64,000 nucleotides of DNA from Escherichia phage Paul: sequence record NC_070992.1; one strand, 5' to 3'. Numbering within the stretch: the first letter of the stretch is position 1; the number at the start of each line of letters is the position of its first letter. The position numbers and the translations under genes were made by a program. Positions 53,949-63,721 of this stretch are shown piece by piece. The notes under the pieces are model-generated. The model saw only the letters and a program-made list of their open reading frames with translations. It was not told the DNA's origin and did no database searches.

Positions 53949-54152
53949 TTAGTAGAACGAACGAATTTCATCCCACACTTGTTCCTGTTCTTTCCTATAA
54001 AAAGAAAGTTGGGTCTTGAACATCTCCACTGATGATTCAAAGTTTTTAGATTGTGCAGCTTCAACGAAACGTTCATGTCGGTTGATTTTGCACCGTAGCA
54101 TTAAATACTTGGCTTCAAGTATCCGAAGAGCCTGTCTTTTCTCAAGATTCAC
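53949..54152 (-). CDS. hypothetical protein (67 aa)
   Basis: ORF only. Confidence 0.3.
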   Translation of the reverse strand: MNLEKRQALRILEAKYLMLRCKINRHERFVEAAQSKNFESSVEMFKTQLSFYRKEQEQVWDEIRSFY

Positions 54153-54561
54153 TTTTCAGATACTCTGACCAGTCGCCAGATTCGACCAGAACATCTTGTT
54201 CTTCGTCAATGTGATAAATCCAAGCGATAACAGTTTCACCTGAGTCCAGCTTAACAGCAATCTGAGTGCGTTGATAGAAGCTATCTTCAGGGCTACGTTT
54301 GTTGTAACCTTCCAGTCGGTCATATGGACCTTCCAGACCTGCTTTGTCAGTAGCAAATACTTCTACACGAACAGGCTTATTGTTATTGCTGTGTGCGAGA
54401 GAGATGCTTGGGAAATAGGAACCACCATAACGGAACAGATCAAAGTTATCTTCAGTCCAACCTTCACCAATTGACTTAGCACCAGCTCGGTCATTTACTA
54501 AATAGTTAGCTTGACCGCTACGAAGAGAACCATAAGTTGCTACGTAAATTACTTCTGACAT
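54142..54561 (-). CDS. gamma-glutamyl cyclotransferase-like (AIG2/GGCT fold) protein
   Basis: N-terminal YVATYGSLRSGQANY and later RVEVF ... YDRLEGY ... YQR ... AWIY match the AIG2-like pattern. Confidence 0.6.
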   Translation of the reverse strand: MSEVIYVATYGSLRSGQANYLVNDRAGAKSIGEGWTEDNFDLFRYGGSYFPSISLAHSNNNKPVRVEVFATDKAGLEGPYDRLEGYNKRSPEDSFYQRTQIAVKLDSGETVIAWIYHIDEEQDVLVESGDWSEYLKSES

Positions 54562-54562
54562 T

Positions 54563-54772
54563 TTAAATACCTTTCCAGTCTTTCATGATGTTTTCAATGT
54601 AAGCACACTGTTGATCAGTGGCTCCTGTTACAAATACTTCTAACCCCAACTGCTCGCAGAAGGGATTAAGAATTAGTATTCTGGTTTGTCCATATGAGTG
54701 ATGCTCTCGATAGATAACACACCCAGCATCCCATACAGAATCAATGGCTTTACTTAATCTTTCATGTTTCAT
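54563..54772 (-). CDS. hypothetical protein (69 aa)
   Basis: ORF with SD GGAGG. Confidence 0.3.
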   Translation of the reverse strand: MKHERLSKAIDSVWDAGCVIYREHHSYGQTRILILNPFCEQLGLEVFVTGATDQQCAYIENIMKDWKGI

Positions 54773-54826
54773 AAAACCTCCAGTCTATCCGAACTAGCCT
54801 CCTCTTTTCGAAGAGGCTAAAGCAGA

Positions 54827-55012
54827 TTACTCTGTACTAAAGATTTTGATTACACCGCAGATTGCTGCACTTTCAAACACTGCAACAGCTTCACTTCCTT
54901 GAAAGAAGGCTACTTTTCCATCAGAGAAGTTAAACATGTCAGCATCGAGGTCCATAGCTCGCATTTCACCGGCTGTATTAGTATCTTTAAACAGAACTTT
55001 ATACTTATTCAC
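54827..55012 (-). CDS. hypothetical small protein ending in C-terminal Glu (61 aa)
   Basis: ORF inside the ligase cluster; C-terminus FSTE. Confidence 0.3.
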   Translation of the reverse strand: MNKYKVLFKDTNTAGEMRAMDLDADMFNFSDGKVAFFQGSEAVAVFESAAICGVIKIFSTE

Positions 55013-60737: not shown

Positions 60738-60746
60738 GATAACCTC

Positions 60747-61553
60747 TTATGCTACCTGAAGGAGTTTGATCTGCTGGTCCGCTTCTTTAACGTTGTTGCC
60801 GTTAATGATTTCATGAAGCTTCTCAATCGGAAGGCGAGAGTGTAATGCCATCAGAGTGGACATATCGCACTGCTGAACAACCTTGTCAACCTGATCGTAA
60901 ACAAACTTACGGTTTTCACGATCACTAATCCAGAAGTTAGACAGTGAACGGTATTCAATACCATAGTCTTTATAACGGATTGCAGATGCTTTGCCATAGA
61001 GTTCTTTACGGCGAGTATCTTTGTCCATAATAACTGCTGGAAGTGACAGGAAGTAATCACACAGCACACCCAACATCATCTGAGTTTGCAGAGTGATATC
61101 CAAAGCACCAACCACACCAAGATGTACGTGACCACCGGCAGTACGAAGTCCCTTATTCTGAGAAGTCGGGGATGGATTCTTCTGACCAGTGAAGGCGTTG
61201 AAATCAGGAGTGCACCCGAAGATGAACGCTGATTCGTTGAAAGTTTTCATCTCTTCTTCAGTGAAGATGTGAGAGCTAACACCCGGAGCAGTTTCCATGT
61301 CCAGTTTGTTCAGGACATTATTGGTGAGATCGATACCACGTTGCATGTTATCGTTAAACGCTTCAAAACCGCTCTGTGGGTCAATATCAAACTCAGCCAG
61401 TACGTTGTCCTCTTGAAGACGAACATCCTTAGCCAGGGTGATCTTATCGTCCTTAGAACAGCCTAACAGACCAGCCACAGAAGTGATGATGCCATTGCTG
61501 GTACGAACAAACATTTCAGGATCAGAGCCGATAAGGAATTTGCGCTTAGTCAT
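60747..61553 (-). CDS. candidate second COOH-NH2 ligase-like protein (268 aa)
   Basis: FLIGSDPEMF and GGHVHLG resemble the ExE and HxH elements of GS-like ligases; weaker than 59020-60123. Confidence 0.4.
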   Translation of the reverse strand: MTKRKFLIGSDPEMFVRTSNGIITSVAGLLGCSKDDKITLAKDVRLQEDNVLAEFDIDPQSGFEAFNDNMQRGIDLTNNVLNKLDMETAPGVSSHIFTEEEMKTFNESAFIFGCTPDFNAFTGQKNPSPTSQNKGLRTAGGHVHLGVVGALDITLQTQMMLGVLCDYFLSLPAVIMDKDTRRKELYGKASAIRYKDYGIEYRSLSNFWISDRENRKFVYDQVDKVVQQCDMSTLMALHSRLPIEKLHEIINGNNVKEADQQIKLLQVA

Positions 61554-62517
61554 TGTAATACTCCACTAGTTCAGAAAAGAGAGATGAGATTGTGTTACCA
61601 ACTTCTTCAGTAGTAAGGCCAGAACTTGGGCCAGTACGTTGAATTAGTCGGGCTGTAAAGTTTTGTACTATAATGTTTTCCAACTTATTGTCTATTGCTT
61701 CACGTTTGTGACCATGACAGTTGGACCAGAGTCTTAACCACTCTGACATTGTTTCATACTCGTCCGGGTCTTGATCTTTAGCACGAGCAAATCTTCGTAA
61801 GGCATCTTGGTTATGGTTGCGAACATAACCGTCCTTGTTGTCACCAACACCGAAGGGGTTTTGAACCCATACTTGTTTCGTGTATTCATCAGAGTCTACA
61901 ACCAAAGGAAGGAATGCTGCTGCTGACATATTGTTGTTAACAACAATAGAGGTGCTCTCGCTACTCCCATTGGCTCTTCCTCGTTGAGACCACCCACCGA
62001 AGAAGTCACGACCCAACCCAGCTAACACTAGAGCGATTCCGATGCGTTTACGCTTCAGCCACTCTTCCCTGTCTTCAATTCCTTCTGCTAGGAAATCCAT
62101 TCCACGATACTGCCCTTCCAGAATACTGCGGAAAAGCATAAGTCCTGTGAAGATTTGATCTGCTGGATGCTCACGGAGGTTGACAGCAACACTATTCGCT
62201 GAAGTGATCGTAAATACATCACGATAGCAAGACATAGAGTTCATAATGTCTGCTGTTTCAACCAAGTTCTTTTCAATATCAGATGAAACATGACCGTGAA
62301 AAGAGTGAGTCCAGTAATTCAACATCTCCAGTTGCAAGTTGATATCACGGTTGAAACGTCTATAACGTCCTTCTTCCGTGATAACTTCGCCATCAATATC
62401 ATTTACGCATTGGCCTTGCATGTAGTTGTGAATACCGAAGCACCCACGACCTAAGAACTTCTGTTCCCCTAAATCTTGTTGAAGATTCAGAGGTACGATC
62501 GTTGTGGAGATTGACAT
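61546..62517 (-). CDS. hypothetical protein (323 aa), cluster member
   Basis: ORF; no motif recognised. Confidence 0.35.
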   Translation of the reverse strand: MSISTTIVPLNLQQDLGEQKFLGRGCFGIHNYMQGQCVNDIDGEVITEEGRYRRFNRDINLQLEMLNYWTHSFHGHVSSDIEKNLVETADIMNSMSCYRDVFTITSANSVAVNLREHPADQIFTGLMLFRSILEGQYRGMDFLAEGIEDREEWLKRKRIGIALVLAGLGRDFFGGWSQRGRANGSSESTSIVVNNNMSAAAFLPLVVDSDEYTKQVWVQNPFGVGDNKDGYVRNHNQDALRRFARAKDQDPDEYETMSEWLRLWSNCHGHKREAIDNKLENIIVQNFTARLIQRTGPSSGLTTEEVGNTISSLFSELVEYYND

Positions 62518-62527
62518 AACTAACCTT

Positions 62528-63721
62528 TTATTTTCCTAAAAATAATCCGCTCATAACACCATCCCACTCAGAGGATGGAATCACTGAATACTCCGAACTT
62601 TGGTCCAGAATCCCACTACTAAATCGCTGAACAATGTTGTAGATGTTGAACAGGTCTTTAGCCTCGGCACGAATGCCGTAGATTAGCCTGTTAGCTGTTT
62701 TCTCATTTTTAGACACGCGACGGGTAAAGTTAACCAAAAGATTGTCACCTTTAAGTATCTCTGACCCATCTTTTACTAGATCGGGGTGCATCACTGGCAA
62801 GAACATTGAGTTGTTAACTCGCAATTCTGCTGTTTCATCGTTCTCATAATGAATCCACTTAAAGTCTTCATCACGGAAGTGACCACATCCATCTCTGTAC
62901 GACTGCTGACGCCAAGGCACTTGAAATGCTTCAGCGTATTTATCAGCCATACCTACTGTAAACAGCGACGCTGGGAAGATACAAGCATCCCAATCATTAC
63001 CAACCAGAGTTGCTTTCGTTTCGCCCAAGAGGTTAGTGTAAGTGCTAACCATTCGTGAGTAAACATAAGCCTGAAGGATTGTCCAGCCTTCAACCAACCA
63101 TTTATGAAGGAAGGTTTCAACTTGACTCTCTTCATCTTCGCAATAGAAGGTTCGATCTAACATCAAATAGAACAGACAACGATCAGCAGGAACATTCTCA
63201 GTTGCTACCCCCATAAAACCTTTCTCGTGCCAGCGTAAACAGGAGGGACGATCTTTGTCCACAAATGCTTCCATAGCTTCCAGTACAGCACGAGGTGTGG
63301 TTCGATGCTCAGGGTTTTTGTCATTCCAACGTTCAATGTTGTTTTTAAGCTCGCCTTCGTAATCAATAGCACCCCAACCTAAAGCTGCGGATACAGGTTT
63401 TTCATCACGCCAACGTCTAAAACCTAACATCTTCATGTGAGTTCCGGAGTTCCAGATATGCTTGATTTTACACATATCCATTTCTCGACTTAACAGGAAC
63501 TCTTCCCCATCAGCACTACGAACGTTAGCTTCTTCATGCCACACTCGAACGTGCATATTCCACCCATGAGTTGCCTCATACATGTTAGGGTCGAAGTATT
63601 CATCTTCGTCATCATCCTCATCAACGCCACCGTTATAGTTGCGAAGCTGAAGGAACCCATAACAAGGAGGGTTGACCGTTAAAACATTACCTTCAGTATC
63701 TTCTAATGTTACTGGAAACAT
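62528..63721 (-). CDS. hypothetical protein (397 aa), cluster member
   Basis: ORF; acidic N-terminal tract, several Cys; no motif recognised. Confidence 0.35.
   Translation of the reverse strand: MFPVTLEDTEGNVLTVNPPCYGFLQLRNYNGGVDEDDDEDEYFDPNMYEATHGWNMHVRVWHEEANVRSADGEEFLLSREMDMCKIKHIWNSGTHMKMLGFRRWRDEKPVSAALGWGAIDYEGELKNNIERWNDKNPEHRTTPRAVLEAMEAFVDKDRPSCLRWHEKGFMGVATENVPADRCLFYLMLDRTFYCEDEESQVETFLHKWLVEGWTILQAYVYSRMVSTYTNLLGETKATLVGNDWDACIFPASLFTVGMADKYAEAFQVPWRQQSYRDGCGHFRDEDFKWIHYENDETAELRVNNSMFLPVMHPDLVKDGSEILKGDNLLVNFTRRVSKNEKTANRLIYGIRAEAKDLFNIYNIVQRFSSGILDQSSEYSVIPSSEWDGVMSGLFLGK

Follow-up and report, generated by a model that had tools for sequence, protein, structure and literature searches.

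The phiEco32-type amidoligase cassette is known in the literature as a module of phages with a putative role in ‘peptidoglycan modification’. Later papers credit its prediction to Iyer, Abhiman, Burroughs & Aravind 2009 and Hardies et al. 2013, together with the idea that its three ligases would make three unusual stem-peptide bonds (PMC10580990, PMC11945000, PMC5498523). Here, we describe a block of genes at 54142–63721 in a 64 000-nucleotide stretch of Escherichia phage Paul (NC_070992.1; the whole stretch, positions 1–64000, is referred to as the window), which is such a cassette and which encodes two glutamine synthetase (GS)-like ligases (CNL2 and AL2), an ATP-grasp ligase (AGR), a class-II glutamine amidotransferase (GAT) and a γ-glutamyl(amine) cyclotransferase (GGCT), together with accessory proteins. 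Published work on the cassette goes back to 2009, it is repeatedly annotated and common to hundreds of phages, and its recognition here is a rediscovery; what we add is a survey of gene order, a β-barrel model of the protein Y, a model of the protein X2, the identity of the small protein gp79 and the alternation of GGCT with a second type of γ-glutamyl-cleaving enzyme. A preliminary description, made from the sequence alone, stated that such neighbourhoods had been predicted computationally and named no characterised product; the credits cited above agree with the first statement, and we found no experimental work in the literature on the product, substrate or phenotype of the cassette.

In nucleotide comparisons, the 9.6-kb block was 94–96% identical over its full length to Escherichia phages IMEP8, NJ01, SU10 and Bas91 and to Shigella phage SGF2, and at least 80% of it was covered in 64 phage records. 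Because of this full-length identity to phages of the phiEco32 group, we assign the window to Kuravirus (Gordonclarkvirinae), that is, to a phiEco32-like prolate podophage infecting E. coli. A chance arrangement is ruled out, as the block is conserved at this level in dozens of Kuravirus genomes and its gene order is repeated in unrelated phage lineages. All of its genes lie on the minus strand, and every open reading frame listed in the preliminary description is present at the coordinates given there. No membrane segment was predicted in any protein of the block, and these proteins are therefore presumably cytoplasmic.

The five enzymes and their catalytic residues

Pfam and PHROG searches placed the enzymes in the GGCT-like, ATP-grasp, class-II amidotransferase and GS-like amidoligase families that had been proposed for them (AGR below the Pfam cut-offs, with a strong match to PHROG 2599), and the catalytic residues are conserved in all five, so that neither profiles nor residues spoke against any of the assignments. 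CNL2 (phi32_86; 60747–61553, minus strand), a COOH-NH2 ligase of type 2 resembling γ-glutamylcysteine synthetase and GS, is 100% identical in protein sequence to its phiEco32 counterpart. It matches PF14395, ‘Phage phiEco32-like COOH.NH2 ligase-type 2’, with 34.1 bits (cut-off 25; E = 2.2e-8), and Asp11, Glu13, Asp49-Asn50, Glu54, Arg137, His142, His144, Glu200 and Arg202 are invariant in 36 diverse sequences. It had been called a possible second ligase; the ligase stands and the hedge does not, because by its sequence the protein is a definite ligase and a founding member of PF14395, a family named after phiEco32. AL2 (phi32_84; 59020–60123, minus strand) matches Amidoligase_2, PF12224, with 33.9 bits (cut-off 22; E = 4e-8). 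Its residues Glu31, Glu33, Glu58, His95, His97 and Glu186-Phe187-Arg188, invariant in 35 sequences, make up the ExE, HxH and EFR motifs that in GS-like enzymes serve metal and ATP binding. Profile searches of PDB sequences returned no solved relative of either CNL2 or AL2.

AGR (phi32_80; 55264–56466, minus strand; 400 aa) is a RimK/MptN-like ATP-grasp ligase, in which the ATP-grasp region (approximately residues 1–270) is followed by an acidic linker and an 80-aa C-terminal domain. Its Pfam matches, Dala_Dala_lig_C (6e-4, 19.7 bits) and RimK (2e-3, 18.2 bits), each fall under the Pfam cut-off, and those in NCBIfam, MptN (2e-8, 33.6 bits against a cut-off of 350) and the rimK family (6e-7), lie far under theirs. 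The weak Pfam match is, however, backed by the match to PHROG 2599 (1.7e-183; residues 319–400 match PHROG 20552), by the orthologue from Cronobacter phage 009, which passes the RimK cut-off of 21 with 33.5 bits, and by the ATP- and Mg-binding residues, two lysines and a D...E-x-N segment, kept in 80 homologues (Lys85, Glu157, Arg159, Lys173, Asp229, Glu241 and Asn243). A segment of AGR also aligns to the Mg-binding segment of RimK. An apparent fusion of a GGCT domain to the ATP-grasp protein of a Cronobacter phage (BLAST E = 0.017) received no support from Pfam and was discarded.

GAT (phi32_83; 56910–58940, minus strand; 676 aa) is a class-II amidotransferase of the N-terminal nucleophile (Ntn) type, matching GATase_6 with E = 1.1e-14 in Pfam. 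An Ntn domain of approximately 230 aa is followed by a C-terminal region that varies between lineages and carries several CxxC pairs, which some lineages have and others do not; the alignment to LUZ24 gp19 is limited to the first 200 or so residues. No Pfam domain was found past residue 230 or so, and hence no fused synthase domain of a known type (SIS, PRTase, PP-loop or FMN), and AL2 may be the partner of GAT in trans. Residues kept in 77 homologues are Cys1, the Arg of the HxRxAT motif (GHSRHAT), the oxyanion motif H-N-G and the glutamine-pocket Asp; Cys2 of the encoded protein, which becomes the catalytic Cys1 after removal of the Met, is shared by 88% or more of the aligned sequences. The retained Arg, Asn-Gly and Asp are the residues that bind the free α-amino and α-carboxyl groups of a γ-glutamyl substrate.

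The GAT gene starts at 58940 with ATT, in the context TAG AAA ATT TGT (ATT-TGT at 58940–58935), with the Shine–Dalgarno sequence AGGTGG 8 nt upstream, and there is no ATG, GTG or TTG ahead of the catalytic Cys in this reading frame. A start at this position, followed by an N-terminal Cys, had been proposed in the preliminary description, and it is borne out by the alignment, in which the ATT start puts the Cys exactly at the Met-Cys position of relatives such as LUZ24 gp19. The mechanical open reading frame finder and the NJ01 annotation instead give a 563-aa fragment from a TTG at 58601, in which the active-site Cys is lost, whereas the full 2031-nt gene is annotated in the original phiEco32 record and in Bas91. 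About two-thirds of the 77 homologues have MCG at the called start, and most of the others, the ATT-start Kuravirus genes included, were called from downstream of the Cys. The intergenic leader (58941–59019, minus strand) contains a hairpin, AAGGG-TTTA-CCCTT, ahead of the Shine–Dalgarno sequence. Among phiEco32, NJ01, ECBP2 and KBNP1711 there is no difference in the 30–40 nt or so before the ATT, hairpin included, although synonymous sites differ in the coding sequence that follows; in metagenomic cousins and most other GAT lineages the gene starts with ATG-TGT. The ATT start and the hairpin leader (58935–58990) may together throttle the translation of GAT.

GGCT (phi32_77; 54142–54561, minus strand; 139 aa) is a GGACT/AIG2-like cyclotransferase, which matches GGACT, PF06094, with 62.9 bits (cut-off 22.8; E = 5.6e-17) and which keeps the YGxL motif (Tyr10, Gly11 and Leu13) and the catalytic Glu84 in 48 homologues. 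Between CNL2 and AL2 lies the gene for Y (phi32_85; 60120–60737, minus strand; 205 aa), the stop codon of which overlaps the AL2 start (ATGA). The structural model of Y consists of tandem small β-barrels of Tudor/KOW/SH3-like type without a catalytic motif, and Y is probably an adaptor, a non-enzymatic partner of the enzymes. Fusion of Y to AL2 was considered as ‘Rosetta-stone’ evidence and rejected, because the long forms of AL2 bear unrelated extensions instead.

Conservation of the cassette and a possible γ-glutamyl-amine pathway

In order to survey the cassette, the best 80 of 178 IMG/VR relatives from a ligase profile scan were combined with four reference loci, and the open reading frames of the resulting 84 loci were clustered. 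AL2 was present in 81 of them, GAT in 77, CNL2 in 74 (by clustering), AGR in 73, Y in 67 (and in three more by hidden Markov model, HMM) and GGCT in 48, with a primase-helicase gene downstream in 44; the order CNL2-Y-AL2-GAT-AGR was nearly invariant. Order and composition are matched in LUZ24 (the gp14–gp24 region; gp16–gp22), PaP3, tf and RIO-1-like phages, and the order recurs in Cronobacter phage 009, Vibrio phage SJSY21 and Aeromonas phage APT65. The crAss-like Cellulophaga phage phi14:2 has a reduced cassette of the five enzymes only, placed between primase and uracil-DNA glycosylase genes, from which it follows that the cassette has no universal link to a substrate protein encoded by the phage; Y was undetected in this phage and in several other lineages.

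At least five enzymes therefore stay together, mostly in one order, in phages that infect E. coli, Pseudomonas, Vibrio and Aeromonas as well as marine bacteria and gut Bacteroidota. Among 100,044 cellular species, represented by one genome each, CNL2 gave only 23 matches, mostly on short contigs from genome bins; those accompanied by further cassette genes have phage-like content, and a few distant matches in longer contigs stand alone. The cassette is essentially confined to phages, which with few exceptions are virulent podophages infecting diderm bacteria, and this conservation, combined with its near-absence from cellular genomes, indicates that it must matter to virulent podophages. In SU10, the ATP-grasp, GATase and YtfP proteins were detected by proteomics and are listed with the early gene products (PMC4281155). 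Four cassette-bearing contigs binned as archaeal (the JAHENH01 contigs L100, L101 and L110, and L102) look like phage contamination of the bins. Archaeal hosts had been considered as a refutation of the peptidoglycan idea and were rejected: the ‘Halobacteriales’ contigs have 30–34% GC and a crAss-like gene order, and they, like the ‘Methanomethylovorans’ contig (44% GC, 3 kb, from a genome bin), most likely represent phage DNA that was mis-binned.

In 23 of the 84 loci, a gene for a Peptidase_C26 γ-glutamyl hydrolase of approximately 210 aa (Pfam 9.3e-22), with its catalytic triad GxCRGAQ...HPE intact, lies upstream of CNL2. Peptidase_C26 is the family of PuuD and of folylpolyglutamate hydrolase. 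Among the 38 loci complete on both sides, 17 had GGCT only, 16 had C26 only, one had both and four had neither, although these counts come from phylogenetically related loci and do not represent independent events. Both genes were present in four low-GC contigs from genome bins (crAss-like group) and in the one complete IMG/VR locus. The alternation is strong, then, but not absolute. A PuuD-like C26 accompanies the cassette in many marine lineages (loci L029, 8927–9607; L032, 3877–4533; L100 and L101 were noted with these, as was L034, which has no C26).

This alternation, together with the intact γ-glutamyl pocket of GAT, supports a pathway that would form and then cleave a γ-glutamyl-amine bond, and it narrows the target to a γ-glutamyl-amine intermediate releasing either 5-oxoproline or glutamate. 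GGACT-type cyclotransferases and PuuD-type C26 hydrolases act on small γ-glutamyl-amine compounds, and an acceptor of low molecular weight is favoured for this reason. Our preferred explanation, to which we give somewhat less than an even chance, is that the cassette encodes a short non-ribosomal assembly line built around a transient γ-glutamyl-amine bond, with a low-molecular-weight, amine-bearing host metabolite or precursor as the most likely acceptor; the acceptor is most likely neither DNA nor a folded protein. In such a pathway, CNL2 or AL2 would use ATP to join the γ-carboxyl group of glutamate to the acceptor amine, in the manner of PuuA or γ-glutamylcysteine ligase, after which the other GS-like ligase and the RimK/MptN-like AGR would add further amide bonds to carboxylates, the added residue probably being glutamate. 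GAT might then supply ammonia from glutamine to amidate an acyl-phosphate made by the adjacent AL2 or, alternatively, might hydrolyse a γ-glutamyl amide, as EgtC does, and Y would probably hold the acceptor or organise the complex. Finally, GGCT would strip off the γ-glutamyl group as 5-oxoproline, a step that in other lineages would fall to a PuuD-type C26 hydrolase, with release of glutamate. The family membership and intact catalytic residues of all five enzymes are consistent with this scheme, as is the fact that the closest named relatives of AGR are the α-L-glutamate ligases MptN and RimK. The same families and residues bear out the view, expressed in the preliminary description, that the block is a toolkit for ATP-dependent amide bond formation and γ-glutamyl turnover, the γ-glutamyl theme being reinforced by C26 as a stand-in for GGCT.

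Several points weigh against this pathway. Each of its chemical steps is deduced from family resemblance, and the roles of CNL2 and AL2 cannot be told apart. GGCT and C26 are not strictly exclusive, given the complete locus and the four contigs with both and the four complete loci with neither, and the cleavage enzymes could harvest a substrate from host γ-glutamyl compounds rather than unmask a product. Ligases of the RimK and PafA types modify proteins too, and Tudor/SH3-like barrels such as those predicted for Y typically bind proteins, peptides or nucleic acids. Moreover, the model does not explain the constant place of the cassette beside primase-helicase and nucleotide-metabolism genes.

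A more specific proposal, which we regard as improbable, is that the cassette makes a novel metabolite specific to phages, an amide or peptide conjugate derived from glutamate, which γ-glutamyl removal would unmask and which would act in phage–host conflict. Such a metabolite, if it exists, could protect phage DNA, inhibit host nucleases or account for the resistance of Gordonclarkvirinae to restriction, and its pathway would be the first of a non-ribosomal peptide-like type to be characterised among the core functions of virulent podophages. The cassette is well conserved and, as the BASEL collection includes Kuravirus isolates that grow on E. coli K-12, it can be studied in a tractable host by knockouts and mass spectrometry.

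Accessory proteins and genomic surroundings

The preliminary description counted at least four proteins without a recognisable motif; there are three larger ones, namely X1 (397 aa), X2 (323 aa) and Y, and five small ones, two of which, gp79 and the DUF7195 protein, can be identified. X1 (phi32_88; 62528–63721, minus strand) matches PHROG 13063 only and is an accessory protein of the Kuravirus lineage; it has 18 metagenomic homologues (32–94% identity), with 53 invariant columns that include many Cys, His, Asp and Arg residues. X2 (phi32_87; 61546–62517, minus strand), the gene for which overlaps the start of the CNL2 gene by 8 nt, has 19 representative relatives among 1.8 billion proteins, and its profile reaches proteins at the same position in Cronobacter and Aeromonas phages. 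Neither X1 nor X2 matched any entry in Pfam at permissive thresholds or in a profile search of PDB sequences, and permissive Pfam searches were equally without a match for Y and for the proteins that occupy the positions of X1, X2 and Y in four other lineages. Structure prediction, which had been suggested as a route to these proteins, succeeded for Y, as described above; for X2 it gave a confident model (pLDDT 87, pTM 0.88) but no fold assignment, there being no convincing structural neighbour and no profile similarity to ligases. The matching position and size of LUZ24 gp14 and gp15 suggested that they might be homologues of X1 and X2, but no homology was detectable.

The small genes lie between GAT and GGCT, all on the minus strand. 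Directly after GAT, a basic protein of 77 aa (phi32_82; 56674–56907) belongs to DUF7195 (PF23825, 4.7e-17); its gene occupies the same position in 18 of the 84 loci, including those of Aeromonas, Vibrio and Cronobacter phages, and the cluster includes LUZ24 gp20. A 74-aa protein (phi32_81; 56469–56693) matches no family and is restricted to the Kuravirus lineage, with its cluster found in eight loci. The gene between those for AGR and GGCT (55009–55257) encodes gp79, an RNA-polymerase-binding regulator of 82 aa that is 100% identical to phi32_79 and that a paper on transcription in phage 7-11 describes as an inhibitor of σ70 transcription and an activator of gp36-dependent transcription (PMC8948821); it sits within the block yet outside its amide-bond chemistry. 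The two remaining proteins are a lineage-restricted acidic protein of 61 aa without a family match (phi32_78; 54827–55012) and a 69-aa protein (54563–54772; PHROG 13365), which is annotated in NJ01 and Bas91 but not in phiEco32. In some relatives (PE006, EcoN5 and UFV-P2) the cassette is interrupted by HNH homing endonuclease genes, which indicates that it tolerates insertions between its genes. Division of the block by an internal promoter or terminator was considered and rejected: there was no gp36-type promoter on the coding strand within 54–64 kb, and scans for σ70 promoters and terminators rose at most slightly over shuffled sequence and gave no convincing site between genes on the coding strand.

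In the direction of transcription, the block lies immediately upstream of genes for a primase-helicase, a DNA polymerase exonuclease subunit, a poly(A)-polymerase-like nucleotidyltransferase and a dCTP deaminase. Four minus-strand open reading frames (46513–47169, 47391–47663, 49690–50223 and 50236–51636) encode the thymidylate synthase ThyX (E = 1.8e-43), a thioredoxin, the dCTP deaminase (3.6e-34) and a protein of 466 aa with a weak match to a poly(A)-polymerase head domain (E = 0.0016). That ThyX is encoded fits poorly with a published suggestion that deoxyuridine might replace thymidine in these phages. In the middle-gene region, 47913–48524 (minus strand) encodes a Ferritin/Dps-like DNA-binding protein (Pfam Ferritin, 2.9e-7), annotated as a member of the Dps family in phiEco32.

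Alternative explanations and relation to known systems

Modification of peptidoglycan, in which the three ligases would add unusual stem-peptide bonds in cytoplasmic precursors, with GAT and GGCT trimming or amidating them, and in which the altered wall would block superinfection or prepare lysis, is the sole published hypothesis, as presented in the papers that cite the prediction (PMC10580990, PMC11945000, PMC5498523), and we consider it unlikely. The stem peptide does offer three free carboxylates, one amine and a γ-glutamyl-diaminopimelate bond, the cassette proteins, having no membrane segments, are probably located in the cytoplasm, where the UDP-MurNAc-peptide is synthesised, and the cultured hosts found are all diderm bacteria with peptidoglycan, Bacteroidota and Planctomycetes included, which is compatible with the idea without being decisive. 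The enzymes fit it less well. AGR is at least as close to RimK and MptN as to D-Ala-D-Ala ligase, while falling far under the cut-off of every family, and by established chemistry GGACT needs a free α-amino group on an L-γ-glutamyl residue, whereas the stem residue is D-Glu with its amine blocked by L-Ala. In addition, the short cycle of a virulent phage leaves an early change to the wall limited time to affect superinfection, the constant link to replication genes has no explanation here, and a nanohaloarchaeal virus, DNTV-1, has been reported with an adjacent ATP-grasp protein and GlmS-type glutaminase, a carboxylate-amine ligase and GGCT, which makes it a candidate relative. The tagging of proteins is in our judgement less probable again. 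Here, a host or phage protein would receive from the ligases a peptide tail, branched or rich in glutamate, much as S6 does from RimK or as happens in the LysX/LysW system or in PafA pupylation, with Y for targeting and GAT and GGCT for trimming. RimK is among the nearest named relatives of AGR, the Tudor/KOW/SH3-like barrels predicted for Y are typical protein- or peptide-binding modules, the zinc-ribbon-like CxxC pairs of GAT could mediate protein contacts, and the cassette lies among host-takeover genes, gp79 included. On the other hand, the substrates from which GGACT and C26 enzymes are known are small molecules, no small tag protein resembling Pup or LysW is conserved with the cassette (its small open reading frames are lineage-restricted, and phi14:2 has the five enzymes only), the zinc-ribbon region of GAT is missing from many lineages, and Y is not a constant component either, given its absence from the detections in phi14:2 and several other lineages.

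Remodelling of the glutamyl tail of a cofactor, such as folate or another pterin, in the service of phage thymidylate and nucleotide synthesis would agree with the invariable location of the cassette within the replication and nucleotide-metabolism module and for the ThyX, dCTP deaminase and thioredoxin encoded nearby in this phage; the best NCBIfam match of AGR, moreover, is the tetrahydromethanopterin α-L-glutamate ligase MptN (2e-8), and Peptidase_C26 includes folylpolyglutamate hydrolase. We nevertheless find it very improbable, as the MptN score of 33.6 bits is far under the cut-off of 350, the known folate and F420 γ-glutamyl ligases belong, as is established, to other folds, and the need for three ligases and an amidotransferase would be unexplained. 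Modification of DNA by the cassette also looks unlikely, and we assign only a slight chance to the proposal that a modified DNA or nucleotide, or another anti-restriction product, explains the resistance of Gordonclarkvirinae to restriction-modification. These phages were unexpectedly resistant to the restriction systems tested in the BASEL study, and the window holds 34 EcoRV and nine EcoRI sites, so that for these enzymes the loss of sites alone cannot explain resistance. In some viral contigs, genes for amidoligases and amidotransferases are found together with those for thymidine hypermodification (PMC8989533), and the cassette adjoins the primase-helicase in 44 of the 84 loci. Against this, the DNA of U17, a LUZ24-like phage bearing the cassette, was cut by 11 of 16 restriction enzymes (PMC11945000), and the window strongly avoids 6-bp palindromes, a signature of chemically unprotected DNA: it contains 659, compared with 1072 expected from base composition; 14 of them, including CTGCAG, GAGCTC, CCATGG and GGATCC, are absent where 6–11 of each would be expected; CC[AT]GG occurs only seven times; and GATC is at about half of its expectation. 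The BASEL authors report no known modification pathway. Neither the 5-hydroxymethyldeoxyuridine (5-hmdU) DNA kinase nor aGPT-Pplase nor DpdA is annotated in relatives, and the thymidylate synthase is an ordinary ThyX; the annotations of the 22–34 kb around the cassette in NJ01 and Bas91, as opposed to a dedicated HMM scan of the window, which was not made, contain none of the enzymes of post-replicative thymidine hypermodification described by Lee et al. 2018 and 2022 (dUMP hydroxymethylase or TET/JBP, 5-hmdU DNA kinase and aGPT-Pplase). Finally, a catalytic domain recognisable as DNA- or nucleotide-binding is absent from every enzyme of the cassette.

Compared with the phiEco32-type cassette defined by PF14395 and PF12224, the block in the window is the cassette itself and differs from it in nothing of kind; the Kuravirus additions are X1, X2, the small open reading frames, the long zinc-ribbon-rich tail of GAT, the ATT start of GAT and the inserted gp79. 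The likeness of the cassette to the cellular systems named below is, as far as these analogies reach, one of shared logic and not of membership. In the E. coli Puu pathway, the GS-fold ligase PuuA masks an amine with a γ-glutamyl group and the C26 enzyme PuuD unmasks it, and many cassette lineages carry a PuuD-like C26 that shares its GxCRGAQ/HPE motifs. The phage ligases, however, belong to PF14395 and PF12224 rather than to PuuA/GlnA, there is no oxidase or dehydrogenase, two extra ligases and an Ntn amidotransferase are present, and the Kuraviruses use a GGACT-like cyclotransferase rather than a C26 hydrolase. Butirosin biosynthesis offers a similar parallel, as it is established that the ATP-grasp enzyme BtrJ works there with the GGCT-like BtrG, which removes a protective γ-glutamyl group as 5-oxoproline. 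By contrast, the cassette has no acyl carrier protein, pyridoxal-phosphate-dependent decarboxylase or acyltransferase, and a GS-like ligase is likelier to be its γ-glutamylating enzyme.

The EgtA/EgtC and GshA/GshB systems resemble the cassette in that a ligase of the γ-glutamylcysteine synthetase/GS fold makes a γ-glutamyl bond, and an ATP-grasp enzyme adds the next residue; in addition, the Ntn enzyme may be an amidohydrolase, and EgtC is among the weak NCBIfam matches of GAT (2.5e-4, far under the family cut-offs). Unlike the ergothioneine pathway, the cassette has no EgtB, EgtD or EgtE, and GAT has a long extra C-terminal region. With RimK, MptN and LysX, AGR shares the Mg-binding D/E/N segment and the conserved lysines, but it scores only 29–34 bits against family cut-offs of 143–350, and it is set apart from them by its added acidic linker and 80-aa C-terminal domain.

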